64,000 bases of DNA from a virus: IMG/VR virus record IMGVR_UViG_3300045988_171772, positions 32,001-96,000 of that record. One strand, 5' to 3'. Below the pieces are notes generated by a model. That model was not told where the DNA came from. It saw nothing but the letters and a program-made list of their open reading frames with translations, and ran no database searches. Below, piece by piece: positions 1 to 64,000 of the stretch (position 1 is the first letter of the stretch; the number at the start of each line of letters is the position of its first letter). The translations under genes and the position numbers were made by a program.

Positions 1-315
1 TTGAGAGAAGTAGAAGCAGAAGATAATGAGACTCCTATTCCTCTGAATGTATCTGTAGAAGTCAATAAAGAGACTGCAGATATGAAGGTAAATAAGACCA
101 CCTATGTAGATAAGGTGGAGAATAAGGAGCTTGCTAAAGTAAGAAAGATGATTACTGACTTTGCTATGGCTCCTACTACCAAGAAGAAAGAGCTTGCGAA
201 TAAGATCTACTACTATGTGATTGATCACAATGTAGATATTGATCTCAGTAAATATCGTATGATCTGGAAATTGGTAGATAAACCCTTTATCACTTCCAAG
301 AAGGAAGAGAAATAA
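1..315 (+). CDS. hypothetical protein, C-terminal fragment (gene begins upstream of window)
   Basis: Frame open from window edge to TAA 313-315; stem-loop follows at 321-364. Confidence 0.55.
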   Translation: MREVEAEDNETPIPLNVSVEVNKETADMKVNKTTYVDKVENKELAKVRKMITDFAMAPTTKKKELANKIYYYVIDHNVDIDLSKYRMIWKLVDKPFITSKKEEK

Positions 316-320
316 AAATT

Positions 321-364
321 AAACCGTAATGATGATAGTGACAAATACTACATCATTACGGTTT
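321..364 (+). terminator. stem-loop terminator
   Basis: AAACCGTAATGATG...CATCATTACGGTTT inverted repeat followed by T-rich run. Confidence 0.6.
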
Positions 365-464
365 TTCTTCCTATACATGGTTGATGATTCTAATATGACC
401 GAAATTAATGGAGGATGCGGAGGGGCTATTCTTTTTGAATCAGTCTAACCATAAGAAGAAATAA

Positions 465-503
465 AACCCCGTAATGACGAAATAAAAACGTCATTACGGG
501 GTT
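465..503 (-). terminator. stem-loop terminator downstream of 537..1244
   Basis: AACCCCGTAATGACG...CGTCATTACGGGGTT; T-run on minus strand. Confidence 0.6.
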
Positions 504-536
504 ATTTAGGATTTAAATTGTGTCAGTCCCAAGTAA

Positions 537-1244
537 TCAGGACAGAACATCGTCGGCCTTCTTGTTCAGCTTCTGAGCCTGCTCACGCTTCTTCATGGCG
601 ATGACACCCTTCTGGGCGGCCTTGTTCAGCATGGAGGTGCACTTGTTGATCAGCTTTCCAGTGGCCTTGGCTTCGTCGTTCAGGGTCTTCACGTCGGCGC
701 TCTCAGGCTTGCGCAGAGCATTCTGCAGCTTGGTGTTGGTCTTGATGCCGATAGACAGAACGGCCTTGGTGATGCAAGCCAGCTGCTCAGCGTCGACCTT
801 ACCATCGGCAGAAATGCCATTGAGTTCGAGGCCAGCCTGACGGGCCAGAGTGTTCAGTTCATCAGCATTGTCGATGGTGATAGTGTTGTCACGGATGGCT
901 TTCGCCCTGTCGCTCAGCTCACCCTTCTTGTTCTTCTGGAAGTAGGTCTTGTCGATGGATTTCTGGGTGTTCTTGAAGATGATGCCACGGACCATGGCCT
1001 GGAAACGCATCAGCAGTCTCTTGAACTAATCGGCAACCTTCTTCATTTCATCGCACATCTTAGATGCCTTGGAGAAATATTTGTAAGCCTCACTGAATAC
1101 TCCAAGTTTGTATGCTTTGACTGCATACTTTGTCATTTTGCGCATCTCATAAACCCGAGGGTCTTTGATCAGCTTGGCTGTATCCATGTTGTATCCTTCT
1201 TCAACAGGATCCAGAAACTCAAGCACAGTATCAAAATTGTCCAT
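537..1244 (-). CDS. alpha-helical paralog family A member (P1), interrupted by one in-frame TAG at 1026-1028
   Basis: ORFs 1026..1244 and 537..1010 are in the same frame, separated only by TAG plus 5 codons. The fused product aligns with paralogs at 4540..5202 and 5307..6065: KKVAD*FKRLLMRFQAMVRGIIFK vs KKIATWFKNLLIKFKAMIRKIVFK. Confidence 0.55.
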
Positions 1245-1471
1245 ATTCTATATATCTCATTTGAAATAGATCTATTCCTAATTATTAGGCAAATAGATCT
1301 CTGAACCATAAATGATCTGGGTCCCTTCTCACCCAGTAACAAAAAAGTAGGAATTTGAAACTGATTCATTTATGAATCAGAGAGAAAGCATTTTCTCCTC
1401 TATATATCTATTTGATTTATATATGTATCAAAAGAATTCATGTATTTTTCTTATAAAGGAGAATTCTCGTT

Positions 1472-2870: not shown

Positions 2871-2923
2871 AAATATACGCATATGAAACCTTCTATTTTG
2901 AAGATATTCATATGCGTATATTT
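2871..2923. terminator. bidirectional stem-loop between convergent genes
   Basis: AAATATACGCATATGAA...TTCATATGCGTATATTT, 17-bp arms. Confidence 0.6.
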
Positions 2924-3666: not shown

Positions 3667-3792
3667 GATCTAATTCATACCCTCCTCTCTAGTATACTTG
3701 CTTACTTCAATGTCCGGATATATTCCTATGCATATGATAATAAACTCTACGATGGAACTATAACGATTCCATCGTAGAGTATGAAGCGAATC

Positions 3793-4512: not shown

Positions 4513-4539
4513 GAGAAATATCCACCTTTCTTTTATGAA

Positions 4540-5202
4540 TTAGGCATGAGCCGGAAGAGCTTTGATGGTAGTGTCAACCTCTTTGTCTTTACTCTTCGAT
4601 TCAACAACCTCATCTTTGATCGCAGAGTTGATGAATTTGAGGCAAATACGAACAAGCTTCGCATAGCTATTTGCTTTCTTCTTCTCTTCCTTGAGCCAGA
4701 TGTTGATCTGCTGAGGATCTCTAATGATCTGGTCACCAGTAAATTCGGCTTTCAGTTCATTATTGATCTCATTCCCTTTCTGCAGAGCAGTCTTGCAGAT
4801 CTTAGCCAGATCCGTAGCAGTCAGCTTTTCTGGAAGCGATTCCATAGGAGTTTTGAGTTCAGAGAGAGCATCCTTCATGTTATCAAGTTCTTCTTTACTG
4901 ATTGTGATAGCAGTTTTACCAACGTCGCTCTCCAGTTTCTTCAGCTTCTTAGATGAGGCTTTGAAAGTAATGGAACGAATGACAGCCTGAAATCTTGAGA
5001 AGAGGTTCTTGAACCAGGTCGCCAGAGATTTTAAAGCTTCCATAGCAGTTCCATACGCTTCCGTAACAGCTTCATCATTATGATCAAGAAGTCCATCGAA
5101 AGGCATAACCATCATTGCTTCCTGTACAGATTTGTCTGAAAAGAAAGACTCTGCATTCATAGAAGCAAGAGCATAGAGTTCTTTTGCTTCAGTGTATTTC
5201 AT
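4540..5202 (-). CDS. alpha-helical paralog family A member (P5)
   Basis: 220-aa ORF; MKYTEAKELY, TAMEALKSLATWFKNLFSRFQAVIRSITFKA. Confidence 0.8.
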   Translation of the reverse strand: MKYTEAKELYALASMNAESFFSDKSVQEAMMVMPFDGLLDHNDEAVTEAYGTAMEALKSLATWFKNLFSRFQAVIRSITFKASSKKLKKLESDVGKTAITISKEELDNMKDALSELKTPMESLPEKLTATDLAKICKTALQKGNEINNELKAEFTGDQIIRDPQQINIWLKEEKKKANSYAKLVRICLKFINSAIKDEVVESKSKDKEVDTTIKALPAHA

Positions 5203-5306
5203 GATACATATCTCCTTATTAAATAAGCATAAAATGTACTACTAGGTACAGAATCGCATCGTACCTAGTAGTACCTATTTTAAGCAAATTGTTGATTTGC
5301 TAAATC

Positions 5307-6065
5307 TTACTTGACAGGGTTGCCGTTCTTGTCAATGACTTCGACTTCAACAGACTCAGCCTTATCGGCAGCCTTGGCATCGCTGTTCTGAACAACGCCG
5401 GCCTTGACAGCCTTGTTCAGCAGAGAGGTGGCGATCTTCATGGCGCGAGCAACCAGCTTGCAGTTCTCATTCAGATCCTTCACCGAGACATCGGCAGAAG
5501 GGTTCTTCATGGCGTCAGCCAGCTTCTTCTCGCACTCGTCGCCACGGCTGGCAATCATCTTGCACAGGTTGGCCAGAGTCATAGCGTTCATGTTGGCACC
5601 AATGAAACCAGCCTTGATGCCCTTCTCATCCAGAGCCTTGAAGACTTCGTTGTAGCTCTCGACCTCTTCATCGGTCAGATCAACAACGCCCTTGGCAGGA
5701 GCAGCAGATCCAGCAGCCTTGGCATTCTTGGACATCTTGGCAACAGCCTTGTCAGCAGCCTTCACACGAGCCTTGAAGACGATCTTACGGATCATGGCCT
5801 TGAACTTGATCAGCAGGTTCTTGAACCAAGTAGCGATCTTCTTCAGAGTCTCGGTGACAGCATTGGCAGCCTCAGTGGCGATTTCGATATTCTCACTGCG
5901 CAGCTCATCGACATCATCGACGAAAGCGCCCAGAGTGGACTCGAAAGCCATCTGATTGCGGAAGGACTCCTCAGCAGCAATCGCACGCTTGAAAGAATCC
6001 GCATAGGCAACGTCAGGCTCGAAATCCAGGAGACGAGCGTACTCCATCGCTTCAGCGTATTTCAT
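5307..6065 (-). CDS. alpha-helical paralog family A member (P6), GC-rich codon usage
   Basis: 252-aa ORF; MKYAEAMEYA, TLKKIATWFKNLLIKFKAMIRKIVFKA; C-terminal region aligns with P1 (KNPSADVSVKDLNEN vs KPESADVKTLNDE). Confidence 0.85.
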   Translation of the reverse strand: MKYAEAMEYARLLDFEPDVAYADSFKRAIAAEESFRNQMAFESTLGAFVDDVDELRSENIEIATEAANAVTETLKKIATWFKNLLIKFKAMIRKIVFKARVKAADKAVAKMSKNAKAAGSAAPAKGVVDLTDEEVESYNEVFKALDEKGIKAGFIGANMNAMTLANLCKMIASRGDECEKKLADAMKNPSADVSVKDLNENCKLVARAMKIATSLLNKAVKAGVVQNSDAKAADKAESVEVEVIDKNGNPVK

Positions 6066-10575: not shown

Positions 10576-10761
10576 ATGCGCGGGGAGAGATTCAAATTCA
10601 TTCTTGTCACCCTTCTGGAAGAAATGGATAAGAATCTCGGTATCTTGACTAGTATGGAGGATGCTGAGGAGATCTGTAATACAATCAAGAGTCAGAATGA
10701 TCTTGAAGATTTCCAATTCTATAAAATGGAATCCATGCATCGCAAAGATCTATCAGTATGA
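10576..10761 (+). CDS. hypothetical small protein (start uncertain; frame open from 10501)
   Basis: 61-aa ORF ending in an ATGATGA overlap with the next ORF; no good RBS at 10576. Confidence 0.4.
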   Translation: MRGERFKFILVTLLEEMDKNLGILTSMEDAEEICNTIKSQNDLEDFQFYKMESMHRKDLSV

Positions 10762-10811
10762 TGACAAAGAAGAGGATCGATTCGTTGCAATTTACACGGA
10801 GGAGAATGAAG

Positions 10812-11246
10812 ATGAATGATAAAGTGATTCACTTACAAGCGAGAATGTTTCATAGGAATAATACGTGCGCTCCTCCTTTGAAGGAGAGATTCTTGAAAAT
10901 GAGAGAGCCTTCTAAGAAGGAAGATACTCCCAAGAAAATCTTTCTCAACATTGATGGATATCGTCTGATCAATGTGGATGATATCTCCTAGGTCGGCATC
11001 GAGAAAGTAACAGCACTGGAATCCTGCAAAGATCTTGCAAAAATCACGGATCCCAATGAGAAGATTAGAGCGAAGATTGTGTATACAGTAAAGATCCGAT
11101 CTTCTAGCGGGTTCATTATCTGGTCTTCGGATATTGGTGACAAAGTAGAGATTACACATCTCTATTATAGGATTCATGAGATTCTTAAGAACTATGGAAT
11201 CTCTATCAATTACGTAGAGTTTGAACCCTCTGAGTTCAGACTGTAA
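10812..11246 (+). CDS. hypothetical protein with in-frame TAG at 10989-10991; tandem paralog of 11260..11520
   Basis: GGAGGA RBS 8 nt before ATG 10812; after the TAG the frame stays open for 84 codons to TAA 11244; FLNIDGYRLINVDDIS*VGIEKV aligns with FLDIRNRLTLNVNEILTIVIVKE of the next gene. Confidence 0.55.
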
Positions 11247-11520: not shown

Positions 11521-11530
11521 AAAGAGAAAA

Positions 11531-11586: not shown

Positions 11587-11599
11587 TTTTTGTATCACA

Positions 11600-12444: not shown

Positions 12445-12525
12445 ATGAACTTAGTTAAAAACACTTTTGAACCAAGATTCTCTACCAAGGAGAATATTGC
12501 CGACATCATATACTCAATACGATGA
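12445..12525 (+). CDS. possible 26-aa micro-ORF
   Basis: GGAGGT RBS 7 nt upstream of ATG; hairpin terminator 12537-12573 follows. Confidence 0.3.
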   Translation: MNLVKNTFEPRFSTKENIADIIYSIR

Positions 12526-12777
12526 TTGATGGTTTTGAGGTCTACCTCTTACTTAGAAGGTAGACCTTTCTTTTTGATTTTAAGATAACTATTAATCCCA
12601 TCGATAGAAATGTGGTAACCAAACCATATGGTCAAACTCTATCGATGGGATTAAAACGGAGGCTCTCTTCATGACAACAACAAACCCAGAGCAAGAAGAG
12701 AAAAAGAATCTCACATGCCATTTTGTATATGAAATTCTTTATATGAGTAGTAGTCTCTTTGATAATATCTTGATAAA

Positions 12778-12800
12778 TTTCTATATATTATATTCATAGA
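12778..12800 (+). promoter_or_regulatory. TCTATATATTAT promoter-like motif
   Basis: TTTCTATATATTATATTCATAGA; same core as 49418 and 51576. Confidence 0.4.
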
Positions 12801-12879
12801 GATGGAAGAAGTAAACTGTCTTTGTCTCTATGAAAGGAAATCCATTTTGTCAAGCATGTATCACGGAGGTATGACTACA

Positions 12880-13785
12880 ATGAAATTCGTAACGCATCCC
12901 ATTCGTATTAACCCGGTGAATCTTGGAGAGGATACTGGGAAGTTATTACCCTATCTCCACGCTCGTATCGTATCTATCTATACCAGGGGATATAAATCCC
13001 ATATTGATCTTCTGATTCAGATGAGTGATGGGAATTATATCTACATCAAACTCTATAGTGTCCTGAGAAAGGATAACTCTCTTACCAATACCAGAGATGG
13101 TGTTGGTACCAAACCTGCTTGGGGTCTCAAGTATGTCAAGAAGACTTCTATCGAAGGTTGTGTCCTGGATGTGATTCCTTCTTCGGAAGAGCTTAAGGGA
13201 TTCAAACGGTATTTCTGTATCCTTCCTCTCCGTATGGCTTACTATGAGACCAATAAGTCTCTCTTTATCTGCTCTCACAATTTCGTAGAGGGTATTGATA
13301 TGGATGCCAGAGGGATTCTCATCTACACAGATAAAGATATGGAGAGTGCACTCTTTCTCAATACCCACTTCTTTGCTCCTGAGAATCTCAATTCTCGGAT
13401 TCATCCTTATCGCACTCTTCTCTTCCATATCCATGAGTCTCATGACTTCTCTACCAAGTTGGCATACTCGGATGAGACCAATGCAGGTAGATTTGAAGTC
13501 TCGGATGCACCCATAGCCTTCCATGAAACTCTCTGGAATGGTGAGGATTATCAACTCTTCATCACCAGTCAGAAACCCGTCTCCATCTATAACGATGGAT
13601 ATCAGAATGGAGAACCTGAGAATGAAGATCTGGAAAAGAGAATCTATTCCACTTTTGAGAATATCGCAGAATCTGTTTCCAGCTCCTTCTCTGTCTATGC
13701 AACGTTTGCCTTCTCCTATGCCCGCGTCTATTTCCTTGACAATGGTGAGTACATTATCGTCAAGGAGCAAGATGTAACCCGTTAA
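12880..13785 (+). CDS. hypothetical protein (301 aa)
   Basis: GGAGGT RBS 9 nt before ATG 12880 (the track ORF starts at 12802 in the same frame); long ORF; terminator at 13812-13866. Confidence 0.75.
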   Translation: MKFVTHPIRINPVNLGEDTGKLLPYLHARIVSIYTRGYKSHIDLLIQMSDGNYIYIKLYSVLRKDNSLTNTRDGVGTKPAWGLKYVKKTSIEGCVLDVIPSSEELKGFKRYFCILPLRMAYYETNKSLFICSHNFVEGIDMDARGILIYTDKDMESALFLNTHFFAPENLNSRIHPYRTLLFHIHESHDFSTKLAYSDETNAGRFEVSDAPIAFHETLWNGEDYQLFITSQKPVSIYNDGYQNGEPENEDLEKRIYSTFENIAESVSSSFSVYATFAFSYARVYFLDNGEYIIVKEQDVTR

Positions 13786-13811
13786 GAATCTCTATCTCCT
13801 CTTGTGGAGGG

Positions 13812-13916: not shown

Positions 13917-14372
13917 ATGTCCTACGAAGAAATTGCTGTCCGTTGCTTTCTCATCAAGTCGAAGAATGTATCTCCGATACATCCTGTCATATTTTCGGAT
14001 TCCTCTATATCTTACATATAGGGAATTCTTCCAATGTATTCATCAATAAGCAGATTCTGTGATATAGGAGGAATTTTTAGATGGTTCAGTGGAATAATTA
14101 TTTCTTTAATGAGAGTCATGTGAGCTTGTATTTACGTATGTCATTCTTCTGAGAAAGATGAGAATGGAAATGCTCTATTTGAAGTGACTGTTAAATTATC
14201 TGGGAACGATAATCTAGTCATCACAAAACCAATCTCCTATGAGAAAGCACTCGCGATAGCAAAAGATATCTCGCTCATGATTGACAAGGCGAGTCATCCA
14301 GAGATGTACTCCTATGATGGAGTACCAAGAATCTTTAAGCAACATCCTATGTGGCAATCTAATGAATATTGA
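13917..14372 (+). pseudogene. 152-codon reading frame interrupted by TAG (14019-14021) and TGA (14121-14123)
   Basis: AAGGAGG RBS before ATG 13917; all three segments share one frame; the last segment (track ORF 14184..14372, GTG) has no RBS of its own. Confidence 0.4.
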
Positions 14373-21922: not shown

Positions 21923-22189
21923 TTACTGATGTCTCTTTTTCGGTTCATCCATATAGGTGAACCAATTCCCTTGGGAATCCTGCATGATGGGTTTGTGACA
22001 GAATCTGCATCTGGAATGAAAACTACATCCATCATAGTATTCATCCCCATCATCCGGTTTGTGCCATTCCAGGATCCCATGATAGAACCAGGTCATTGCC
22101 TTGAAGGGATGGACATACCAGATGAATCCAAGGATCCATAATAGACCAAGGAGAAAACCCAGAATGGAAAAGACATACAACATACTCAA
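21923..22189 (-). CDS. small membrane protein with Cys/His cluster
   Basis: TM SILGFLLGLLWILGFIWYV; CSFHSRCRFCH; ATGA overlap with the upstream gene. Confidence 0.7.
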   Translation of the reverse strand: MSMLYVFSILGFLLGLLWILGFIWYVHPFKAMTWFYHGILEWHKPDDGDEYYDGCSFHSRCRFCHKPIMQDSQGNWFTYMDEPKKRHQ

Positions 22190-22974
22190 TCATCCTCTTC
22201 CTTCTCGAGATCTGGATTCGCGGTGCGGAATTCATCCGGATCTCCAATCGACATACTGAAGGTATCATCCGAAGATGCGATCAGAGGTTCATCGAGAGGA
22301 TCCCCAACCACATGCTTGGGATCTGCATCGGTGATGACAATGGCATACCGAAGATTGAAGGCTTCACATCCTCTCTCAAAGAGCAACCAGCTCAGCTGAG
22401 AGGTAGAGCTTCTCATCACAGATTTGAAGTTGAATCTGGCATTCTTATCCGGGAATTGATTCTGACACTGATCAATGTCAATTCCCTTCTTCTGAATTGC
22501 CATCTTCAGAATTCGTTTGAGGAGTTTGTCATTCTCCTGGATCTCAGGAATGAATGCCTTGGTAGAGACAGCCTTCTGTTTGGCATAGATACTCTCCTCA
22601 TTCTTCTCAAGATCCTTAGCCATCAGAATGGGATTCAGCTTTGCAATATGCTCCGGATCTGCCTTGAAGTACCTGCAGTGCTCCTCATTGTTGGGATCAC
22701 ATTCGACCAGATAATAGGTCTGGGTCTTTTTGTCCCAGTAGATACCAGGTTCATTTGCCAACTCTCTCAGCTGAGGACCCATATACCGATAGAAAAATCC
22801 ATTATAGAGATAGGCAGTCTTGGTGTCATACTCCCCAGAATCCGGATCCAACACCTTGATTCTCATACAGCCCATGGAACCCAGAAGAGCCATAGGCTGC
22901 TCATTCTCGTCCAAATAGCCTTTGGACTTCTCTTCTTCCACCTTGGGCAATTCGGTAAATGCAACGATTTTCAT
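22186..22974 (-). CDS. hypothetical protein (262 aa)
   Basis: AAAGGAG RBS; long ORF in operon. Confidence 0.8.
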   Translation of the reverse strand: MKIVAFTELPKVEEEKSKGYLDENEQPMALLGSMGCMRIKVLDPDSGEYDTKTAYLYNGFFYRYMGPQLRELANEPGIYWDKKTQTYYLVECDPNNEEHCRYFKADPEHIAKLNPILMAKDLEKNEESIYAKQKAVSTKAFIPEIQENDKLLKRILKMAIQKKGIDIDQCQNQFPDKNARFNFKSVMRSSTSQLSWLLFERGCEAFNLRYAIVITDADPKHVVGDPLDEPLIASSDDTFSMSIGDPDEFRTANPDLEKEEDD

Positions 22975-22992: not shown

Positions 22993-23691
22993 TTATTTGA
23001 GGGAAAACCCTCTGGAATTCTTATTGGCGATGACATTTCCATGAATGACATCGTCGATTTTGTTATTGGGATTGGTGGCACTAAAGCCATTACTCTCAAT
23101 GACATTCTTGTGTCTCTCTGCAAAGGCATAGACATTCAGCAATTTGAATGTCTCCTCTGCATAGGAATACTGCTTGAGGACATAGACAAAACTGCGAAAT
23201 TCTGCATAGGTCATCGTCGTCTGAATGTCAATGTCTCTCAGATGGATGAGGATACCTTCAAAAGTATTGTCTCCTCTCCTACATAGAGTTGGAAGAATGG
23301 TAACTTCTTGGGTATTGGGATACTTCCTGGAATCTCGGAAGGAGATCTTGAGAGAGTTATAGGCAGAATTGAAGGCCAACTTATTCTCCTCATCATAGAT
23401 AAAGAGATCCTTCATATTCTCATCGGTAAACCAATTCAACGCTGTCATACATGATTTGGTCATCTCATAATACTCATTCTCCAGAAAGAAAGTGGTCTTG
23501 GTTGAGAATGGCATCTCCCTTCTGGATTTCGGGGATATTACCAGATTCAGCCATACATTCGGAATATCCATCTCTGGTATGCTATAGCTGCCATCCTTCT
23601 TGGCATAATAGGAAAACTTCGGAATTGACACTACTGATGTGAGCTTCAATTCCGAAGTTGCAAATAGACATCTGGATAGTTTGTCAATCAT
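22993..23691 (-). CDS. hypothetical protein (232 aa)
   Basis: Long ORF in operon, tightly spaced. Confidence 0.8.
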   Translation of the reverse strand: MIDKLSRCLFATSELKLTSVVSIPKFSYYAKKDGSYSIPEMDIPNVWLNLVISPKSRREMPFSTKTTFFLENEYYEMTKSCMTALNWFTDENMKDLFIYDEENKLAFNSAYNSLKISFRDSRKYPNTQEVTILPTLCRRGDNTFEGILIHLRDIDIQTTMTYAEFRSFVYVLKQYSYAEETFKLLNVYAFAERHKNVIESNGFSATNPNNKIDDVIHGNVIANKNSRGFSLK

Positions 23692-28658: not shown

Positions 28659-29171
28659 TTACTCCTCTGCTTCCGTGTTGAGTTCTTCGGAAGGAATCTC
28701 CTCATCTTCCGAAGCTTCTTCTCCATGCACCTTCTTCTCAATCTCTTTGGAGACTTTCTTCATACGATTCTCCATCGCATTCTTCCAATCGGTGGAGGTA
28801 TCCTCCTTTTCTACGATTTTGATCTCGGCATACTTCAATCCATCAAACTGGACCGAAGAGTCATACTCATTGATGAATTTGAGATAGTCCTCCAGACTGT
28901 CAAAGGAGATCTCAACGGGGAATCCTTTGGCTTGACAGGTATCACTGTTATAGTATTCAGCAATCTCCTGGTGAATGTGGTATCCGGCATCACAAGGTTC
29001 CGGATTCGGATTGAAATAGAAGTTATCGAAGAGCTCCATGAAGGGAGTGAATGCACCACTCATACCGACATCGGAGTTGGAAGAGACATTCAGGTCGATC
29101 TTCCCAAGATAGGAGGGATGGATATTACGATATTTCTGGGAAATGATTTTAGAGCTCTGCTCACCTAGAGA
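28659..29171 (-). CDS. RNAP beta-like subunit (N-terminal-half protein), exon 2
   Basis: KYRNIHPSYLGKIDLNVSSNSDVGMSGAF resembles beta [24 protein letters not shown]; the first 38 codons of track ORF 28659..29285 are intronic (they contain the S element, P8 and P9). Confidence 0.65.
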   Translation of the reverse strand, partial: SLGEQSSKIISQKYRNIHPSYLGKIDLNVSSNSDVGMSGAFTPFMELFDNFYFNPNPEPCDAGYHIHQEIAEYYNSDTCQAKGFPVEISFDSLEDYLKFINEYDSSVQFDGLKYAEIKIVEKEDTSTDWKNAMENRMKKVSKEIEKKVHGEEASEDEEIPSEELNTEAEE

Positions 29172-40768: not shown

Positions 40769-42337
40769 ATGAACGATCATCGCGTTCATCGTGCAGGTGA
40801 TATCGAATTTGGTATCACCGAAGCGATTAGCCTTGCAACAGTGAAGAGCGGCATCTCCTTTGCTGGAGGGGCTGCTCGTTCAACCGCAAAGGTAATCAAA
40901 TCTCTGACTCCGAATAAAGGAAGCATTGCTAAAATGGCACGCGATTACGTGATGCAATTTCCCGTACTCGCGTCTTCTTCTATTCCGGAGGAAGATCTGG
41001 CCCCGATCGTGAAAAACTTTGAGATCCAGTATGCACAGTTCATCGCTATGGTGCTTCAGGGTAGAGCTGGTATCAATGTCAAGGACATCGATTCTACTGC
41101 CGACATTCTGAAGCAGCTGCATAGCAATGAAGATGCTCCCAATCTTCTGGATTATGCCATGGATATTACCGGTGGCAGAAATTCCAGCGTTAAGGGTGTT
41201 GGAGAATCCGTGCAGATTGGTATCCCCGAATCTGAGCTGCAGGCTCTCGCTTTTGGTACCGATGCTGAATTCACGATGGAGAATCTGAATTCTATGTATC
41301 AACCCAATAAATCCATGCTGGATAAGTATGAGAGAGTCACTGCCGCTATGGAATCTGGTAAACCCTCTCCTGATGCTGCGAAGACTGGTTCTACGCGGTA
41401 TGGAAATGGTTATACTCGTCCTACCGACACTCCCAGTCCTTCTCAGATGACGGATGATGATCTCTCTCGTTTCACTGATGAAGCTCGATATAAGAATATC
41501 AAGAATCAGAATCTGAAACTGGATGAGGATATCGAACGTCTGAAGTATGAGAATCGGAAAGAGAGTCGTGCTCGTCGTGAGAAAGCCGATGATCTGAAGA
41601 TTGCGAATACTGAGAAGCAGAATCGGAAATTGGATATGGATTATGCTTCCAGCAAGCAGACTTCTGTCAGTGCTTCTGATCTGAATAAGATCCAGAATAC
41701 TGGCGATGCTCCCACTGTGCTTACTGCTACTCTGTATCTGGAATCTGAAGCTGGTGTTCCTGAGCCTCGTACTGTCGTCTTTGGCGTCAAGTGCATGACT
41801 CGTGCGATTCCTTCTTCGGTCATGGTTCCGAATGTGACTGATTGTATTGCTTCGAATACCTGGGCATTCCGTTTTGTCAAATGGACCAAGGGAGAGATCA
41901 AATTCTTCCGTGATATCCTCTTTGATATTACCAATGCTCGGAATGAAGCGATCAATGACAAAGATCCTGCTGGTGCCTGGTTCAATTCTGTGAAGCGTCG
42001 TAAGCGTAACTCGAAGTGGTTTGGTTCCAAGACCAACATCTCTCCGGTTATGACTCTGATCATCACAGATGAAGAAGCCGAAGCTATCAAGGCTCAGACT
42101 GGTATCGATCTGACAGATGATCGGTCTGCTGCTAAGCTGATGAAAGATATGTATCTGCTTGGCTTTGCGATCTATCACACTGCCAATGGTAATATCGATA
42201 TCATGCTGGATAAGTATAGCAATAGTCAGTTCTACAATACGACCATGACCGGCATCCGTGCCTCCAACAAGGGCAATTCCAACACCGATCTGCGGGAGAT
42301 CAACAAGCTTCTGCAGAATGGCGGGTATATTCGCTAA
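40769..42337 (+). CDS. hypothetical protein (522 aa)
   Basis: AGGAGG RBS; long ORF; minus-strand 40880..42352 is its shadow. Confidence 0.85.
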   Translation: MNDHRVHRAGDIEFGITEAISLATVKSGISFAGGAARSTAKVIKSLTPNKGSIAKMARDYVMQFPVLASSSIPEEDLAPIVKNFEIQYAQFIAMVLQGRAGINVKDIDSTADILKQLHSNEDAPNLLDYAMDITGGRNSSVKGVGESVQIGIPESELQALAFGTDAEFTMENLNSMYQPNKSMLDKYERVTAAMESGKPSPDAAKTGSTRYGNGYTRPTDTPSPSQMTDDDLSRFTDEARYKNIKNQNLKLDEDIERLKYENRKESRARREKADDLKIANTEKQNRKLDMDYASSKQTSVSASDLNKIQNTGDAPTVLTATLYLESEAGVPEPRTVVFGVKCMTRAIPSSVMVPNVTDCIASNTWAFRFVKWTKGEIKFFRDILFDITNARNEAINDKDPAGAWFNSVKRRKRNSKWFGSKTNISPVMTLIITDEEAEAIKAQTGIDLTDDRSAAKLMKDMYLLGFAIYHTANGNIDIMLDKYSNSQFYNTTMTGIRASNKGNSNTDLREINKLLQNGGYIR

Positions 42338-42352
42338 GGAGGTATAAACCAC

Positions 42353-43522: not shown

Positions 43523-44548
43523 CCAAGAATGAAATTCCCTAGTTACTAATCTAAGAAAAAGAATTAGTAACTAGGGAATTGATTTTATATAATATGAAGC
43601 GATTGACTTATTATGAGCTGGCATCTCAATAGTCACCTAGTTTATAAAAATAAAGATACGATACCAGTTTCTAGAATCAGATCTAGACTTGGTATCGTAT
43701 CTTATAAAGTGATTTACCGCACAAGAATACAGAATGATTCATCATGATTCCAGTATCTCTTTCTCTATAAGAGAGCTCAATCCGGAACTAAAAAGAAGGA
43801 ATCTAACTAGCTTGCAGAATACATCTTGGGAGAACATAAAGAGCGGAGTTACCGTATAGATTCAAACCAACCCGTATGCTATACCTCCAGAGAGCTTAAC
43901 TTGATAATCTCATAGAGATAAGAGAGAGTGAAGAAGATGATCTCTCTTATATAGGAAGAGCAAGAGCAAATGCGTACTGATATTCGGAGGTTCAGTGAGC
44001 AAAAAGTATGTAAGAGAGACCTGAAAATAGAAGAAAGTAGGTATCATAATAGAGAGGTATATACTAGACAAAATCCATGGATGTATCACAAAAATGGAAT
44101 TGACTATCTATATCCCTAAGATAACATTTTGGTTTCTATTTCCAAAATATAGGAGTGATCGGTCACATGGTTCCTGTATTCCTATAAATCACTTTACTGA
44201 TGATGTAGGAATTTTTAACGAAAGTATCCACAATGCTTATAAAGCAGAAGAAATACCTTATTATCATCCTCCCTGATGTAAGATCACTTTCTATATCTGC
44301 TTAATTGGAATGATCGAGATCCGAAGAGACCCGTCTATAGTACCAGCACCTTCTGTTATAGGGTGAAACTCTTTGTTTGAACTCTCATTCCAGTGTCTGT
44401 GAAATCCTTCTCTTGAACGGTCATTTGAAGAGCTGGATTTCCCCTTTCCATTTCCCATATGGCAAGGATTGCAAGCACGCCATATGGGATTTAATTTGTC
44501 AAATATAATACGTCATTTCACCGATTCGAAAAGTCGATGGTGAAATGA

Positions 44549-44577
44549 CGTATATTATCTTGGTAAGCGAATAGAGA
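44549..44577 (+). promoter_or_regulatory. GTATATTAT promoter-like motif
   Basis: CGTATATTATCTTGGTAAGCGAATAGAGA, about 50 nt upstream of ATG 44610, directly after hairpin 44509-44549. Confidence 0.35.
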
Positions 44578-44609
44578 AATGATTAGAATCTAATTCTGTA
44601 TTCTTAGGG

Positions 44610-44939
44610 ATGATACATGAATTAGAAATCGAAAAGGAATCATATAGCGGTATGACTCACTTCGATTATTTCTTCTCCACTGTGGAGGAAATTCGTAATT
44701 TCGTTCGTTCTTCTGAATCTAGTAAGACTCAGGAAGGCAGAAATCTAAGTAGATACTTCAATATCTTGGATAATAGCTCACACCTCAACCCAAGAGAACT
44801 GAGCTCAAAAGAATATCAACTTAGAGGAATCCTGAATGAGAAAGCCTTCTGGGAATTTCATTTACGATATCCCGAATTTAGGCAACTTACTTATGATTCC
44901 TTAGGAATCGATCGAACATTACTCATCATTCCACAGTAA
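44610..44939 (+). CDS. hypothetical protein (109 aa)
   Basis: Clean ORF, weak RBS. Confidence 0.6.
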   Translation: MIHELEIEKESYSGMTHFDYFFSTVEEIRNFVRSSESSKTQEGRNLSRYFNILDNSSHLNPRELSSKEYQLRGILNEKAFWEFHLRYPEFRQLTYDSLGIDRTLLIIPQ

Positions 44940-52261: not shown

Positions 52262-52765
52262 ATGCCTAACTTAGTTTCTGGAAAAGTCGGTCATCTTCAT
52301 CTTTTGAAAAACGATGTAATTCAAAGGATTTTTCATGAGATTGAAGTGGAGCTCGATTTGAAAATAAAAACCTGGAGGCCAATCGGATTCGTTGATTTTC
52401 ATCTAGAAAAAGAGGATAAAGATATCATAGTACCAATCTTTCTTTATCTAGATAAAGTCGTTGATTCCGAAAATGAATACATCAAAAGACTTACATTTGG
52501 CTTGTCGCCGAGAACTAAAGAAGCGCAAGACTTTCTATTGATGTATCACTTAAAGGGATGCGAATCATACATTATTCAAAATGATAATCCTGCCTCTCTT
52601 GTAAATGGAATTGATGACGATAATCCAGAAGGATATCATCCTTTGCAAGAAATTCGAATCGAAGAATCTTTTGATGATAATTCCATGAAGGTTCGTAAAA
52701 CTTGTCATTTGTATGGAATCGTGTATGGGAATTCCATGAATAAAATTCATTTTATTACTATCTAA
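52262..52765 (+). CDS. hypothetical protein (167 aa), AT-rich
   Basis: AGGAGG RBS. Confidence 0.7.
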   Translation: MPNLVSGKVGHLHLLKNDVIQRIFHEIEVELDLKIKTWRPIGFVDFHLEKEDKDIIVPIFLYLDKVVDSENEYIKRLTFGLSPRTKEAQDFLLMYHLKGCESYIIQNDNPASLVNGIDDDNPEGYHPLQEIRIEESFDDNSMKVRKTCHLYGIVYGNSMNKIHFITI

Positions 52766-53797: not shown

Positions 53798-54646
53798 TTA
53801 GCCCTGCGCAGCGAAAGTGGTATCGCTCGCAGCAATCTGCTCCTGAGTGATGTTCGGGTCGAAGTCCAGATAGCTCCACTTCAGAGTATCGATCGCCAGA
53901 TAGTAGGCGGCGATATCATTGATGTAGCGGGACTCATACTTGGTGCAATGCAGCACGACCTCGATCTCAGTCGCATCATGGCTGTTCGTATCATAGTTGT
54001 ACTGGTCACGGTCAACCTTCTCAGGGAAGCAGTGAGCCAGCAGGCAAGCATACTCGATAAACTTGCCAGTCGGATCCGTCACAAAGTAAATGAATTCGGC
54101 AGTGTGGTTCTTTTCACCATACTGGATCTTCTCGGTGGCATCATCCATGGGACCCATGACATTGCCATGGTAATGGGCGATACCAGTACGAGGATCGCGC
54201 ACACCAGTAATCCAGGTAGTCAGGAACTCGGTGCAGGGGGAACCACTCATCTCGTACAGACCAATGGTCACTGTATCGGTCTGGTCAGTAGCGATCTGCA
54301 CAGTCTCGAACTTCTGTCCAGTGTAACCACCCTCAAACGTGGTGAAGTCAACCTGGATATCGCCGATACCGTTGACAGAACGGAAACCAGTCTCGATATA
54401 GGATTTGAACCGGTTGGTCAGATCAGGGAAAGCCTTCTCCATGAAGTAAGGCTTTTTGTACATGAAGAGACGCGCATAACCACGGATGAAAGGATTCATC
54501 TGATCCAGGTTCTGCGAAGTAACGTCAACGCCGGTAAGGAAGTAGCTGAACTTGGAGTAGTCTCCATCGTTCGTTACCATATACCGACTCATATCGCTGT
54601 CTACGCCACTCTGGATAGGATGGTTTGTATAACGTGCATCAGCCAT
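53798..54646 (-). CDS. tail tube protein (putative)
   Basis: 282-aa ORF immediately downstream of the sheath gene, GC-rich high-expression codon usage; assignment by synteny and size. Confidence 0.5.
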   Translation of the reverse strand: MADARYTNHPIQSGVDSDMSRYMVTNDGDYSKFSYFLTGVDVTSQNLDQMNPFIRGYARLFMYKKPYFMEKAFPDLTNRFKSYIETGFRSVNGIGDIQVDFTTFEGGYTGQKFETVQIATDQTDTVTIGLYEMSGSPCTEFLTTWITGVRDPRTGIAHYHGNVMGPMDDATEKIQYGEKNHTAEFIYFVTDPTGKFIEYACLLAHCFPEKVDRDQYNYDTNSHDATEIEVVLHCTKYESRYINDIAAYYLAIDTLKWSYLDFDPNITQEQIAASDTTFAAQG

Positions 54647-54666
54647 TGCTTATATCCTCCCTTCCA

Positions 54667-56724
54667 TTATTTATTGACGTAGATGTCCACGATAGCGGTC
54701 TTGATCAGACGCTTGTGACTCAGCTCAATCGTCAGATGCAGAATACCCTGCTCCTGTTCCGCATCAGTGCTGGAGAAAGTAGCGGTAATGCTACGAACCT
54801 GAGCCTGAGCGTACTTGGTCAGAAGCTGCTCAGCATCACGATTGAAACGAGACAGGTCGGTGGTCTCCAGGAAGTTGTAAGAGTAGTTTCCGCACAGAGT
54901 CTCACAATCACGCTTGATATCCATGAGGATAAACATGTTGTTGCACTCAGACAGAGCACTCAGAATATCCTGACGAGTCGACTGCATCGCACGGATCATG
55001 ACGCTCTTGGGATTGATCTGCGCATAGTTGACACGATAAGTGGCAAGCTGATCCATAATCGCCGAATCGATCGCCTCATCATGGATGGGGAAGATCGAGT
55101 TGGAAACCAGCTCATCCATCTCGATGGTACCATAGGAACCACCAGCCAGAGGAATGTGCTTGCCATTGTTCTGGTCGAAGTTGGTGGGATAAGCACCAGC
55201 CAGCCAGTAGGTAGAAGTAACAGAAACGATCTTGCGAGAGATGGGATCACGGATCTTCATCTCATAGCCATCGACGAAGCAGTTCCGGTTGGCAGTGGCC
55301 GCATCGATATAGGTCAGACGAGTGAGGATATCCTCAGAAGTCTGCATACCAGTGCAGAGGTCAAAACCAGCCAGGCAGTCTCCGCGACGAGTGCACAGAG
55401 AAGCGATGGCATTCTTGATCGTGTAGTCATAGTTGGCATCCAGGATCAGATCCAGAGGATGACGAGTCTTGGAGTAGATGGTCTTATCGACAGAAGCGAC
55501 AAAACCCTTACTCGTATACTCTTCCTTGGTCTCCAGAGGAATCTCATCAGGATCGAAAGCATACATGTAGGCATTGTTGATGGCCTGAGTCACATCGCTG
55601 GCATTGCTGCCATCCGCCTTAACCTCAAACATACCATCGGTGCCACCCTGCATGTCGACACCAGTCAGATCGGTCAGAGCAACCACGTTCTCGGCAGAAC
55701 CAGAAGGCTCAACCTGATAACGATAGATCGCAGAGCGATTCGCCACCGTCACCTTGGTCTGCAGATTCTTGTTGATGCCCAGGAAGTAGTCGAAATTCGA
55801 AGCATCCAGCTTCATGTAGCTCTTCAGCACATTCCACGGATCATCCGAATTATCCTTCAGATTGGACATGCCAATCGAAGCCGCATACTTTTCCAGTTCA
55901 GGATTCGTCAGCTTAGAAAACACGTTGGTGTTATAAGCATTGGCGATTTCCTCGAAACCTTCGGGATTGGTGACGATCTGAATGTTGTCAGAACCAGTAT
56001 CAGGATCATTCACAACGCTGTCGGCAAACAGAGTAGCGGTGTCTGTCAAAGCGTTGTCATAGAAGCTGACCGGGATCTCTTCGATCAGAGTATCACTCTC
56101 GTAGACCTGGATGTAATAGTTCTTGTAGTCGTTCTCTCTATCAGCCCGAGAGTTGTTAGAGATACGAATACCCAGATTGTTACCATAGGCACCACGTCCC
56201 TTGGACGCAATGGCCATCAGGTAAACCATGGTATATCCTTCCGGGGGTTCAGGACGAAGTTCCTCAGCCTTCTGACCAAGGGTTTTGATATCAATCATAC
56301 CCTTCTTGGTCACAATGCTGGGGTCTTCACCATCCAAAACCTTCAGCTCACTGGCGGTGTAAAAACGAACACTCAGAACCTGAGTGCCTTCCACATCCAC
56401 CATCTTGTAAGCTGCGTAAACATACATGTTTGCACGAGTCGCATCGGGAGCGGCAATGCGCAAGCAATTCGCAGTCACAACACCGGTAGACAGAGCCCGA
56501 CGGCAGTTCATGAGAGGCTGACCGTAGCTCTTGATATCACCCATGCCGAATTTGGACACCAATTCATCGACAGTCTTGACGGCAGTCAGCTTTCCATCCT
56601 CGCCTCGGGGAGACTGAAAGATGAAGAGCATCCTGGTACCATCTGAAACACTGGCGCGCTGAACGGTGATTTGACTCTGGTCATAGATGTTTACCTCGGT
56701 ATGAGGAAAAGCATAATATGCCAT
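54667..56724 (-). CDS. contractile tail sheath protein
   Basis: GGAGGT RBS before ATG 56724; about 685 aa; C-terminal YRVNYAQINPKSVMIRAMQSTRQ resembles sheath RVNPI....G.VVWG.RT; GC-rich codons; followed by the tube-sized gene. Confidence 0.65.
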   Translation of the reverse strand: MAYYAFPHTEVNIYDQSQITVQRASVSDGTRMLFIFQSPRGEDGKLTAVKTVDELVSKFGMGDIKSYGQPLMNCRRALSTGVVTANCLRIAAPDATRANMYVYAAYKMVDVEGTQVLSVRFYTASELKVLDGEDPSIVTKKGMIDIKTLGQKAEELRPEPPEGYTMVYLMAIASKGRGAYGNNLGIRISNNSRADRENDYKNYYIQVYESDTLIEEIPVSFYDNALTDTATLFADSVVNDPDTGSDNIQIVTNPEGFEEIANAYNTNVFSKLTNPELEKYAASIGMSNLKDNSDDPWNVLKSYMKLDASNFDYFLGINKNLQTKVTVANRSAIYRYQVEPSGSAENVVALTDLTGVDMQGGTDGMFEVKADGSNASDVTQAINNAYMYAFDPDEIPLETKEEYTSKGFVASVDKTIYSKTRHPLDLILDANYDYTIKNAIASLCTRRGDCLAGFDLCTGMQTSEDILTRLTYIDAATANRNCFVDGYEMKIRDPISRKIVSVTSTYWLAGAYPTNFDQNNGKHIPLAGGSYGTIEMDELVSNSIFPIHDEAIDSAIMDQLATYRVNYAQINPKSVMIRAMQSTRQDILSALSECNNMFILMDIKRDCETLCGNYSYNFLETTDLSRFNRDAEQLLTKYAQAQVRSITATFSSTDAEQEQGILHLTIELSHKRLIKTAIVDIYVNK

Positions 56725-61646: not shown

Positions 61647-61690
61647 AAATCCCATATGGATTTCTTTATCTAAGAATCCATATGGGATTT
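61647..61690. terminator. bidirectional stem-loop
   Basis: AAATCCCATATGGA...TCCATATGGGATTT. Confidence 0.6.
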
Positions 61691-61701
61691 ATATTGTCAT
61701 T

Positions 61702-62466
61702 TTAGATAGAGATGTCATCACCGATCTTGAAAGAAGTCGGAGATCCCTCAGGAAGTTCCTTAGGATTCTCAATAGCTTCTTCCAAAACTTTCTTTCTGAC
61801 TCCCCATTCTTCCGGTACACTCGGGAACTCAAATCCATCGACATTGAGATAGACAAACTCCGGAGTCAATACATTTGACTGGAATTGTCCACACTTCATA
61901 CTCATGTCTACCTTATACTGAATCAGCTCCTGGACTTTATCCGGAATGTAATCTTCATACTCTTCCACAAATCCGGTATAATCCTGATAGATCTGCTGAA
62001 GAGGAATAAAGATTCTTCCATCATGGACCAGTTTATGCTGAGTAGCACTCAGAGGAATCAGACCTACCTTACCAGCATAATGAAGTTCCATCACTTCATT
62101 GGCAAGCTCATAGGGATTCAGATCTTTCTCAAGAATCTGGTACTTGGCCAAGACTGTCTGGACGATCTGGAAGAGATTGAAAGGTTCGTGATGGATCTCA
62201 ATGGTATATTTCTTACCTTCACCATTCTTGAGTCCTCTCAGAATGGCACACTTATTGAAATCCATATTCTTCTTCAACCAGGAGATATAGTCTTTATACT
62301 CCTGAGAGTGTCTTACAATCATCTCAATCTTCTTGACAAACTTGACCATATCCTTCTCAGTCCGAAAGACATAAGTAGGTCTCTTGGGAAGTTCTTCGAT
62401 GGTGATATTAACAGTACGACGATCTCTATACTTTTTGGCAATATCAGAATCTTTAACCAAAATCAT
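61702..62466 (-). CDS. hypothetical protein (254 aa) with His-rich motifs
   Basis: Clean ORF; TIEIHHEPF and QHKLVHDG; no confident family. Confidence 0.75.
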   Translation of the reverse strand: MILVKDSDIAKKYRDRRTVNITIEELPKRPTYVFRTEKDMVKFVKKIEMIVRHSQEYKDYISWLKKNMDFNKCAILRGLKNGEGKKYTIEIHHEPFNLFQIVQTVLAKYQILEKDLNPYELANEVMELHYAGKVGLIPLSATQHKLVHDGRIFIPLQQIYQDYTGFVEEYEDYIPDKVQELIQYKVDMSMKCGQFQSNVLTPEFVYLNVDGFEFPSVPEEWGVRKKVLEEAIENPKELPEGSPTSFKIGDDISI

Positions 62467-62486
62467 AGAAAAGAGATCTCTCCTTC

Positions 62487-63296
62487 TTATTGGAATCTCC
62501 GAATAATTGCATTTGGATACAAAGGTGCTGGATTGAAATTGGGATCTGTATTCTTAGCAGTCACATAGGTTGTCCATGTCGGGAAAGAACGAATCTGGAC
62601 ATACTTGGAATACTTAGGAAGCCAATAGTGATTCATAGTGAGATCACTAAAGGTCAGAGAGTGATCATAGAATCTAGTGCAATAGGGAAGAAGAACTTTT
62701 CTTCCATCTTTACACCAGACACTCAGTTTGTCATACGTGACCAATGCAGGAAGATAGACGATCTCCTTAGGCATCTTAATGACGATATCGTAATAGAGTT
62801 CTTCCTTAGGAATTTCACCTTTCTCATAGGCTTCTTTATCCACAGGATCACTGATACGATATTCTACAGAAAGATCACTATAGGACTGGGAAATCCAGTT
62901 AGACATCTTCTTGAATCGATTTCTGACGTAGTCATCCGGAATCTGATTCTTATTGAATCTCTCAGGATAATAGACATAGGTGTCAATATTTCGATCTGTC
63001 AGATCTCTCACCAGATTAAAAAGTGTGGATATCGTACGAATGTTGATCTGATTCGCAAAGATATTCACCCTCTGATAGTATGCAATGGTGGCATACTTCA
63101 TACACTCCCGATAGCAATCCGGAGTCTGAATGAAGAGACAGAGCTCATTCGGTTCCTGAGAGTCTGTAAGAGCAAACACAGGAGCTGCACCAGTGGAATC
63201 GGCATCATAGAAATTCTCCAGATATCCAGTCATACCATAGCATGGCATCCTGAAATGAATATTTGGGTTATCATAATGGGGCATGATATTCATCAC
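62487..63296 (-). CDS. hypothetical protein (269 aa)
   Basis: Clean ORF; plus-strand 62490..63320 is its shadow. Confidence 0.8.
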   Translation of the reverse strand: MMNIMPHYDNPNIHFRMPCYGMTGYLENFYDADSTGAAPVFALTDSQEPNELCLFIQTPDCYRECMKYATIAYYQRVNIFANQINIRTISTLFNLVRDLTDRNIDTYVYYPERFNKNQIPDDYVRNRFKKMSNWISQSYSDLSVEYRISDPVDKEAYEKGEIPKEELYYDIVIKMPKEIVYLPALVTYDKLSVWCKDGRKVLLPYCTRFYDHSLTFSDLTMNHYWLPKYSKYVQIRSFPTWTTYVTAKNTDPNFNPAPLYPNAIIRRFQ

Positions 63297-63377
63297 CTCT
63301 CGTTAAAGGCCTGTTTTTGAGGGCAAATACCCTACCTAGAGCTATTTATTAGTCCTAGGTAGGGTATTATAAATCTT

Positions 63378-63941
63378 TTATTGATTCGAGAATTTGACGA
63401 AACCTTTATTCTTCTCGTAATTGGCTTCGACTTCTTGAATGGTAGGTACAGAATCTGACCAAGCTACTTTAGCCGGATACGTATCTTCCGAATCATAGCT
63501 ATCCACTTTCGGAGCCAGCATTACGATAGCTTCCGCATTATTCTCATAAACAGGATTCTTGACATACAGAAGGAGAGTACCATTGGGATACAATTCCAAC
63601 TTTGTAGGTGTGTGAATCCTCTGGAAATCTTCCGAAGTCTGAGGATACTTAAGATTCGCATCTTCATAGTAATCCTCATACTCACGAATCAGCTCTTTCA
63701 GCTTAGCGGTACAAGAAGGAGTCTTCATCCAACCCTTTACCACTTTTCTGAAGTTTGATCTTGCCTTGTCTGTAATGACAGCAAGTTTCTTCAGAAGCTC
63801 AGGGTCATGTTCCTTCTTATCCCGATTTCCATATTGGTATGAAAAATCGACCGGCATCATCTTCCCCATATAGGGAATTTCCATCTTCCCATGGATGGTA
63901 ACCACCCATGTGCCATGAGAGAAATAAGAATTTAGCGTCAT
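63378..63941 (-). CDS. hypothetical protein (187 aa)
   Basis: Clean ORF; its ATG overlaps the upstream stop (ATGA). Confidence 0.75.
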   Translation of the reverse strand: MTLNSYFSHGTWVVTIHGKMEIPYMGKMMPVDFSYQYGNRDKKEHDPELLKKLAVITDKARSNFRKVVKGWMKTPSCTAKLKELIREYEDYYEDANLKYPQTSEDFQRIHTPTKLELYPNGTLLLYVKNPVYENNAEAIVMLAPKVDSYDSEDTYPAKVAWSDSVPTIQEVEANYEKNKGFVKFSNQ

Positions 63942-64000
63942 CTGTCCAAGATCTTTATCCTCGAACGAATTATTGTTTTCCTTCTTACGAGATCCCCATT
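63938..64000 (-). CDS. hypothetical protein, C-terminal fragment (gene begins beyond window end)
   Basis: Open frame ...RSRIKILDR then TGA 63938-63940 overlapping ATG 63941. Confidence 0.4.
   Translation of the reverse strand, partial: NGDLVRRKTIIRSRIKILDR

Follow-up and report, generated by a model that had tools for sequence, protein, structure and literature searches.

The stretch of viral DNA analysed here, referred to throughout as the window, comprises 64 000 nucleotides (nt), positions 32 001 to 96 000 of the IMG/VR record IMGVR_UViG_3300045988_171772. It derives from an uncultured jumbo phage of the human gut with a genome of ~255 kb, and its genes seldom end in TAG. A sequence-only reading of the window had noted this scarcity, together with open extensions in the same frame behind the few TAG codons that do end reading frames, and had suggested that TAG might be suppressed or reassigned. 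Our analysis points to a simpler explanation, which is probably correct. The phage would use the standard bacterial code within a lineage whose stop-codon preference is depleted in TAG, and the in-frame TAG codons would be amber mutations in dispensable genes that vary between strains.

The window has a GC content of ~41%. Matches to PHROG families include an SbcC-like protein, a split RNA-polymerase beta subunit, a polymerase, a virion protein and the tail sheath, and matches to Pfam an NAD-dependent ligase and a helicase. Exact copies of window proteins are carried on contigs of 253-267 kb from human-gut metagenomes, in hundreds of samples. Among known phages the sheath resembles those of Yersinia phiR1-37, Bacillus AR9/PBS1 and Staphylococcus S6-type phages (26-27% identity). 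The likeness to these jumbo phages extends to SbcC, the split multisubunit RNA polymerase, the polymerase gene and self-splicing introns, but the relationship is very distant.

Comparisons and independent gene calls were taken from near-identical public contigs (L001 and L006) and from strain variants of 94-98% identity (L002-L005, L012-L015, L020 and L023-L026). The relatives used are, by sheath identity, the sister species L017 (83%), L018 (51%, GC 48%), L019 (43%) and the distant metagenomic phage L022 (37%), each sampled as 19-23 kb, so that the sampling is small. For the phage itself the sequence covered amounts to ~95 kb of the ~255-kb genome, that is the 64-kb window and ~30 kb of flanks. 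Megablast of 20 kb of the window against a phage collection gave no match, a scan of IMG/VR with a 389-amino acid (aa) window protein found no relative, and a homologue search with a concatenated 2248-aa query made from the proteins of the relatives gave no return. A scan of GTDB genomes with the phage sheath found nothing, and hence gives no hint of the host. Exact look-up of the window helicase matched a single 3.5-kb contig, and that of the proteins of 63378..63941 and 12802..13785 had no match, probably because the public calls start elsewhere.

Stop-codon usage in the phage and its relatives

A curated list of 67 open reading frames (ORFs) was compiled from our own codon-model calls and the gene calls on near-identical contigs (L001, L006 and L012). 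The simple codon model gives negative scores to some real AT-rich genes, such as 52262..52765, and the calling of weak ORFs therefore rests also on conservation. The 67 ORFs are terminated by 48 TAA, 16 TGA and 3 TAG codons, in the order TAA >> TGA > TAG; a first crude gene call had given 45, 13 and 2. The earlier count made by eye, ~55 TAA, ~18 TGA and no TAG, is consistent with this. The flanks of the window in other strains contribute ~18 further genes, with no TAG terminator in any strain-shared gene; the left flank in strain L020 has 10 TAA and 3 TGA codons together with one amber allele.

The same preference is found in the closer relatives. The numbers of TAA, TGA and TAG terminators are 18, 4 and 0 in L017, 12, 1 and 0 in L018, and 19, 4 and 0 in L019. 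More distantly related phages use TAG normally. The 56 annotated genes of AR9 end in 40 TAA, 8 TGA and 8 TAG codons, so that TAG makes up 14%, and the 18 genes of L022 end in 13 TAA, 1 TGA and 4 TAG codons, the sheath gene itself being among those that end in TAG. Thus TAG terminates none of the ~140 core genes of the phage and its three closer relatives, compared with 12 of 74 genes in AR9 and L022 (Fisher p = 1.6e-6). The lack of such terminators in the core genes of the subclade exceeds chance, and the upper 95% bound on the use of TAG in these genes is ~2%. The scarcity that was originally noted is therefore genuine, and is a property common to the gut subclade. The core genes end in TAA (~80%) or TGA (~20%) and essentially never in TAG, whose use as a terminator is confined to a few accessory genes specific to particular strains.

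Avoidance of TAG or CTAG at the level of the sequence was considered as a cause, and rejected. Off-frame TAG at codon junctions occurs at about half of the frequency expected from codon shuffling, and off-frame TAA is depleted to an equal extent. Since off-frame TAG is no rarer than off-frame TAA, reflecting a general avoidance of TA, the bias against TAG is specific to terminators. Neither is low GC alone a likely cause, given that GC is ~41% here and 48% in L018. Counted in all frames, the window contains 824 TAA, 772 TAG and 1523 TGA triplets.

Two genes interrupted by TAG codons

All the TAG codons listed in the sequence-only reading are present, at 1026-1028 (minus strand, CTA on the plus strand), 10989-10991, 12797-12799 and 14019-14021, and a weak ORF said to end near 43867 corresponds to that at 43734..43859. 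The open extensions that follow them are 162, 84, 4, 33 and 14 codons long, respectively, as had been stated (15 had been given for the last). Stops in a random frame of the window are spaced by 20.5 codons on average, so that the extensions of 4, 14 and 33 codons are unremarkable (chance probabilities of 0.82, 0.50 and 0.19). Those of 84 and 162 codons (0.015 and 0.0003) are real coding continuations and not the result of chance. When the window proteins were compared by tblastn with all the loci of strains and relatives, and all the ORFs of those loci with the window, TAG was found within a genuine frame only at 1026-1028 and 10989-10991. The features concerned are collected in Table 1.

Table 1. 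Positions of the interrupted genes, their stop codons and associated elements in the window
Feature	Position	Strand	Remarks
Chimeric accessory gene, 235 codons	537..1244	-	N-terminal 72 codons from a 183-aa 'MDNFD...' family, remainder from a 240-aa family
Amber codon 73 of the chimeric gene, TGG to TAG (Trp73)	1026..1028	-	Strain-polymorphic
In-frame ATG, possible restart of a 157-aa C-terminal product	1008..1010	-	15 nt past the TAG; putative
Upstream neighbour of the decaying gene, frameshifted in the window	10576..10819	+	1-nt insertion in an A run near 10723; single 80-aa ORF in L002-L005
Decaying accessory gene, ~144 codons when restored	10812..11246	+	Disrupted in all five strains
Amber codon, Tyr to amber (TAT to TAG)	10989..10991	+	TAT in L003 and L005; TAG in the window, L002 and L004 (independent samples)
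Internally deleted remnant of a 120-aa accessory gene	12445..12563	+	Natural stop TAG 12561-12563
Intrinsic-terminator hairpin (GAGGTCTACC...GGTAGACC, -17.8 kcal/mol) and T run	12537..12576	+	TAG stop in the 3' arm; hairpin remnant 12537-12568
42-codon ORF, TAG-ended	12671..12799	+	Negative coding score
Weak 34-codon ORF, TAG-ended	13917..14021	+	Negative coding score; extension of 33 codons (0.19); ORF-poor hypervariable stretch; treated as noise
Group I intron in the polymerase gene	29175..29604	-	Rfam RF00028, 58.2 bits (gathering score 50), E = 3.4e-12, full model
Weak 41-codon ORF, TAG-ended	43734..43859	+	Negative coding score; extension of 14 codons; no gene called in L001; treated as noise

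The first of the two TAG codons lies within a gene assembled from two families. The proteins P0003, P0004 and P0006 (183-186 aa) match its N-terminal part only, and the 240-aa P0002 matches its C-terminal part only. From KKVAD onward the gene follows the family of P0002, which has paralogues in the tandem genes 5307..6065 and 4540..5202 of the window, and the two families have recombined at a shared MKKV(A/V)D motif. Alignment with the paralogues continues across the TAG, which faces tryptophan (...LKKIATWFKNLL... against ...MKKVAD*FKRLL...). The residue at codon 73 is W in the paralogues and in P0001, P0002, P0016, P0017 and P0022, three of which (P0016, P0017 and P0022) are intact 235-aa alleles of the chimera, and Q (encoded by CAG) in P0019. 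Strain L020/L021 has TGG at codon 73, yet carries a different amber at codon 52 (GAG to TAG). The W73 amber is also present in L005, and the 72-aa fragment of this allele occurs on ~33 contigs; the 72-aa P0009 is found on 21 contigs. The recurrence in L005 and on ~33 contigs shows that the W73 amber is not an assembly error. The CAG of P0019 is one step from TAG and two steps from TGG, and this allele thus looks like a pseudo-revertant of the amber allele. Beyond the stop, the 157-aa ORF has been called as a gene in public assemblies (P0023, nine contigs). Searches of Pfam and PHROG with the chimeric gene and its parent families found no function. The gene was also noted together with 2923-6065 (-) and 7185-7775 (-), four paralogous genes in this part of the window forming a tandem array with very strong codon bias.

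The second TAG codon lies in a gene for which five out of five strains are disrupted, by three kinds of lesion. The TAG is the sole lesion in the window and in L004, and is accompanied by a 1-nt insertion in L002. In L003 and L005 the codon is TAT, and the C-terminal third is put out of frame by a 48-nt deletion together with a 1-nt insertion. Constraint on this gene is weak, with 6 synonymous and 10 non-synonymous differences upstream of the TAG, and 12 and 10 downstream, these being small counts. Once again, Pfam and PHROG searches found no function.

Other nonsense changes segregate in the population. An AAG to TAG change at L014 316-318 lies seven codons short of the natural end of a conserved 397-aa gene. 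The 120-aa accessory gene that survives as a remnant in the window is undamaged in L002, and in L005 has a nonsense codon, CGA having become TGA. The sense codons found in homologues at these positions, TGG, TAT, GAG, AAG and CGA, are all one mutation from a stop. The disabled genes are thus polymorphic among strains, with intact, W73-amber, E52-amber and Q73 alleles of the chimera, and frameshifts and a deletion in the second gene.

Decoding of TAG and the origin of the amber codons

Is TAG read as a sense codon in this phage? The proposal of amber suppression or reassignment was not borne out. The conserved genes are free of in-frame TAG: none was found in the sheath, tube, virion proteins, lysozyme, polymerases, ligase or helicase, either in the window or in the relatives, and the sheath homologues are of full length across the clade. 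The 19-23 kb sampled from each of L017, L018, L019 and L022 contain neither an in-frame TAG nor a tRNA(CUA). The residues that stand opposite the in-frame TAGs across strains are W, Y, E and K, with a single Q variant at codon 73. Comparison of the orthologues therefore does not reveal the consistent single amino acid, glutamine, that would be expected of a reassigned codon. Treating TAG as sense in all six frames raises ORF coverage by 4-5%, which is less than the gain from treating TGA (8-11%) or TAA (7.5-12%) in the same way, and TGA and TAA plainly act as stops. The coding-density check that had been suggested thus lends no weight to recoding. Four gaps in the gene map (11520-12800, 13785-15342, 15788-16855 and 43522-45180) were examined as coding sequence with TAG, TGA or TAA as sense, and rejected since they remain fragmented. 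A 303-codon frame at 44031..44939, open if TGA is sense, was likewise rejected as a gene; its coding score is negative, and conservation in L017 is limited to the final 109 codons.

No component of a suppression system was found in the sequence that was searched. The window and its ~30-kb flanks contain no tRNA gene, and a permissive Rfam scan gave no tRNA match at E <= 1. There is no tRNA(CUA) in the ~25 loci scanned, and the tRNAs that do occur in relatives and strains (five in L019, and tRNA-Leu(CAA) in L024) do not include one with this anticodon. No release-factor or aminoacyl-tRNA-synthetase domain was present among the proteins checked against Pfam and the precomputed Pfam lists.

Moreover, accessory genes in sister strains end naturally in TAG. 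The 120-aa gene of L002 and L005 has its TAG stop inside the 3' arm of a terminator hairpin. In L012 the GNAT acetyltransferase gene stops with TAG at the very position of the TGA in its L013 and L015 homologues, and a third example, a TAG-ended ORF that scores well as coding, is found in L023, ~16 kb to the left of the window. To judge from these reading frames, TAG serves as the terminator of accessory genes in the sister strains. In the single strain that covers it (L023 3644-4220), a 91-aa ORF ends in ...ACA TAG G, and a startless ORF of 101 codons takes over in the +1 frame; the arrangement could have arisen by a frameshift mutation, or could be a candidate site of +1 frameshifting at a rare stop.

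The alternative that had been offered to decoding, the decay of accessory genes by point mutation with TGG to TAG as a named example, is upheld by the codons TGG and TAT found at the two sites in other strains. The changes at 1026-1028 and 10989-10991 would be nonsense mutations in dispensable genes in a mosaic hypervariable region. The composition of the genes indicates why such mutations should so often produce TAG. The codons adjacent to TAG are numerous (CAG 406, AAG 859, GAG 641, TGG 128, TAT 644, TAC 203, TTG 205 and TCG 85), and constitute about half of the codon sites from which a single step leads to a stop. Given that codons ending in G are favoured (CAG, AAG and GAG, in addition to TGG, TAT and TTG), new nonsense mutations will mostly be amber. 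With amber-adjacent codons abundant and terminators selected to be TAA or TGA, TAG is found inside frames and not at their ends. The depletion of TAG as a terminator may then reflect long-term selection on termination, and not the decoding of TAG. In the chimeric gene, the W73 amber would split the frame into cistrons of 72 and 157 aa, the second perhaps translated by re-initiation at the ATG that follows.

Amber mutants and pseudogenes are classical objects of phage genetics, as is translational re-initiation after a premature stop. The present cases resemble them in being single-step changes in non-essential genes, polymorphic among strains and followed by a nearby in-frame ATG downstream. 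They differ in the high frequency of the amber allele in natural populations and in the occurrence of two independent ambers in one gene.

The stop-codon preference also has a precedent. Close relatives of recoded gut phages that themselves use the standard code strongly favour TAA, and end fewer genes in TAG than in TGA (Borges et al., bioRxiv 10.1101/2021.08.26.457843). It has been proposed that depletion of TAG is the first step to recoding, rare stops being then mainly harmful nonsense mutations (bioRxiv 10.1101/2021.08.26.457843). The phage studied here shares the preference for TAA, the use of TAG below that of TGA, and rare stops that are mainly nonsense mutations; it differs in that its four sampled relatives are not recoded and no suppressor tRNA has been seen. 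Since the window fits the description of Borges et al., the phenomenon is one already known. The crAss-like and Lak phages that translate TAG as glutamine (code 15; described in PMC9523058 and in bioRxiv 10.1101/2021.08.26.457843) are likewise human-gut phages of large genome whose core genes lack TAG terminators. However, recoded phages concentrate their recoded stops in late and lysis genes (bioRxiv 10.1101/2021.08.26.457843), whereas here the late, structural and lysis genes lack in-frame TAG, and the TAGs that do occur face W, Y, E and K. In further contrast to the code-15 phages, no tRNA(CUA) is seen, coding density is not raised, and accessory genes are terminated by TAG.

Several observations weigh against so simple an account of nonsense mutation under the standard code. 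Among carriers of the chimera the W73 amber is the majority allele, on ~33 contigs compared with ~6 that have a sense codon. A second amber has arisen independently at codon 52 of the same gene, and CAG is found in P0019 at the very codon that is TAG in the window. Past the TAG at 1026, the window differs from L005 by nine synonymous and four non-synonymous changes, so that this sequence looks constrained, the counts being small. Because most of these differences are synonymous, the C-terminal module may still be made, for which re-initiation is the simplest route. Lastly, with ~95 kb of the genome covered, a suppressor tRNA could be encoded elsewhere in it.

Some of these points could be explained if the ambers of the chimera were adaptive. 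The recombination that joined a foreign N-terminal module to the C-terminal one might have been harmful, and nonsense mutations at E52 and W73 repeatedly selected because they uncouple the two, with the C-terminal module translated from an internal ATG. We regard this as a tentative and somewhat improbable alternative. The two independent ambers both lie upstream of the conserved C-terminal module, and each is followed by an in-frame ATG within 6-11 codons (M63 and M79). The W73 amber is frequent, and the part of the gene downstream of it scores highest of the window in codon usage (0.457 per codon), its variation being mostly synonymous. But there is no strong Shine-Dalgarno sequence before either ATG, and intact 235-aa alleles persist. 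The synonymous variation may predate the ambers, or stem from gene conversion with the 240-aa paralogue, and neither module matched a known function in Pfam or PHROG.

An unlikely explanation is partial amber suppression. A suppressor tRNA(CUA) might be provided by the part of the phage genome outside the sequence covered, by the host or by co-infecting gut phages in which TAG is recoded. The core genes would have been purged of TAG, with ambers in accessory genes tolerated or subject to regulated read-through. The absence of TAG terminators from core genes across the clade, compared with 14-22% TAG in the outgroups, is consistent with this, as are the two ambers of one gene, the prevalence of that at W73, the CAG at the same codon and the mostly synonymous changes downstream. 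Depletion of TAG and acquisition of suppressors by standard-code relatives are regarded as steps toward recoding (bioRxiv 10.1101/2021.08.26.457843), and tRNA genes do occur in some strains and relatives, as noted above for L019 and L024. Yet none of the ~25 loci has a tRNA(CUA), and the in-frame TAGs are confined to two mosaic or decaying genes, where they replace W, Y, E and K instead of one residue. The second gene is also frameshifted, and opal nonsense occurs too (in L005). TAG stands at the natural C-terminus of accessory genes, once within a transcription terminator, and the ATG just past the stop in the chimera offers a simpler route to the downstream product. It is similarly doubtful that the subclade represents a natural 'TAG-free' intermediate on the way to amber recoding, or is under chronic suppression by a tRNA of its own or of co-infecting recoded phages, so that the recurrent E52 and W73 ambers are read through and are not null.

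Full reassignment of TAG, by code 15 or a similar code in at least part of the genome, is extremely improbable. The core genes do lack TAG terminators and there are two long in-frame extensions, but code 11 leaves the late and lysis genes (sheath, tube, virion proteins and GH25 lysozyme) unbroken, with homologues of full length, the gain in ORF coverage is smallest for TAG, TAG does not align with glutamine, sister strains have natural TAG terminators, and the idea is contradicted within the window. We give equally little credence to sequencing or assembly error: metagenome assemblies do contain homopolymer indels, and the 1-nt differences in A runs at ~10723 and ~11040-11090 could be such, but both TAGs are substitutions and not indels, that at 1026 recurs in L005 and as 72-aa fragments on >30 contigs from different samples, and that at 10989 recurs in L002, L004 and L006 from different runs.

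If the TAGs are nonsense mutations under the standard code, then code 11 is the right code with which to annotate this widespread gut jumbo phage. Annotation should record the split ORFs at 537..1244 and 10812..11246 as genes interrupted by amber codons, or as pseudogenes, and not as recoded genes, and the polymerase gene as split by an intron. The clade provides a clean case in which TAG terminators are almost absent, TAG is not recoded, and more distant relatives use TAG normally. Gut phages have been proposed to pass through such a state before amber recoding, and the clade is therefore a useful test case, though by itself it reveals nothing new on decoding.

Other stops, reading frames and neighbouring features

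The sequence-only reading also listed three in-frame TGA codons and one in-frame TAA. This is borne out only in part, and two of the stops, at 29544-29546 and 10759-10761, can be accounted for. The TGA at 29544-29546 lies inside the group I intron of the polymerase gene. Joining the ORFs 29544..30956 and 28659..29285 at the ends of the intron model gives an uninterrupted ORF of 622 aa, the splice ends being approximate. The apparent in-frame TGA at 10759-10761 is created by the 1-nt insertion near 10723. A tblastn search of the window with the ORFs of the relatives found no further in-frame stop in any genuine gene frame, and other pairs of ORFs in the same frame are simply adjacent genes, for example 22993..23691/22186..22974 and 28659..29285/26598..28655.

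The interval from 10.5 to 16.9 kb is a mosaic hypervariable accessory region. Between 10500 and 16900 there are gene remnants, frameshifts and perfect hairpins at 14543-14603 (22 bp) and 16801-16851 (19 bp). The version of this region in strain L024 carries the tRNA-Leu(CAA) gene (L024 9349-9437), and that of the window has no tRNA. The remnant of the 120-aa gene was recognized by tblastn with the L002 gene 3318..3680, of which residues 1-25 and 99-120 match the window in different frames. For the ORF at 12671..12799, the counterpart in L002 and L005 has a 1-nt indel and reaches TGA after 33 codons, so that the frame is not conserved; this is probably not a gene, or else has an unconstrained end.

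A second ORF-poor stretch, of 1.66 kb with a GC content of 36%, lies at 43523-45180 between the gene of a 389-aa late protein and that of the GH25 lysozyme. An Rfam search of it gave no match. The sole conserved ORF within it is 44610..44939 (109 aa, ending in TAA), which is 40% identical to a 115-aa gene of L017. In L017 the same flanking genes enclose neither this spacer nor the lysozyme.

Very long antisense 'shadow' ORFs lie opposite real genes, for example 29493..30953(+), 40880..42352(-) and 54625..56646(+). Their abundance is unusual for a GC content of 41%, and they accompany the general depletion of TA and the rarity of the codons TTA and CTA.

At the right edge of the window (63378-64000; 7996-9089 in L012-L015) lies a DUF6582-like gene. 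In L012 it forms a single ORF of 363 aa; L014 and L015 carry frameshifted versions, and in L013 part of the gene has been replaced. It also begins with the motif M-x-N/A-F-D-x-V-M/L-E, which is common to the N-termini of otherwise unrelated small proteins, including those of accessory genes in L002 and L004, and which could be a targeting or packaging signal.

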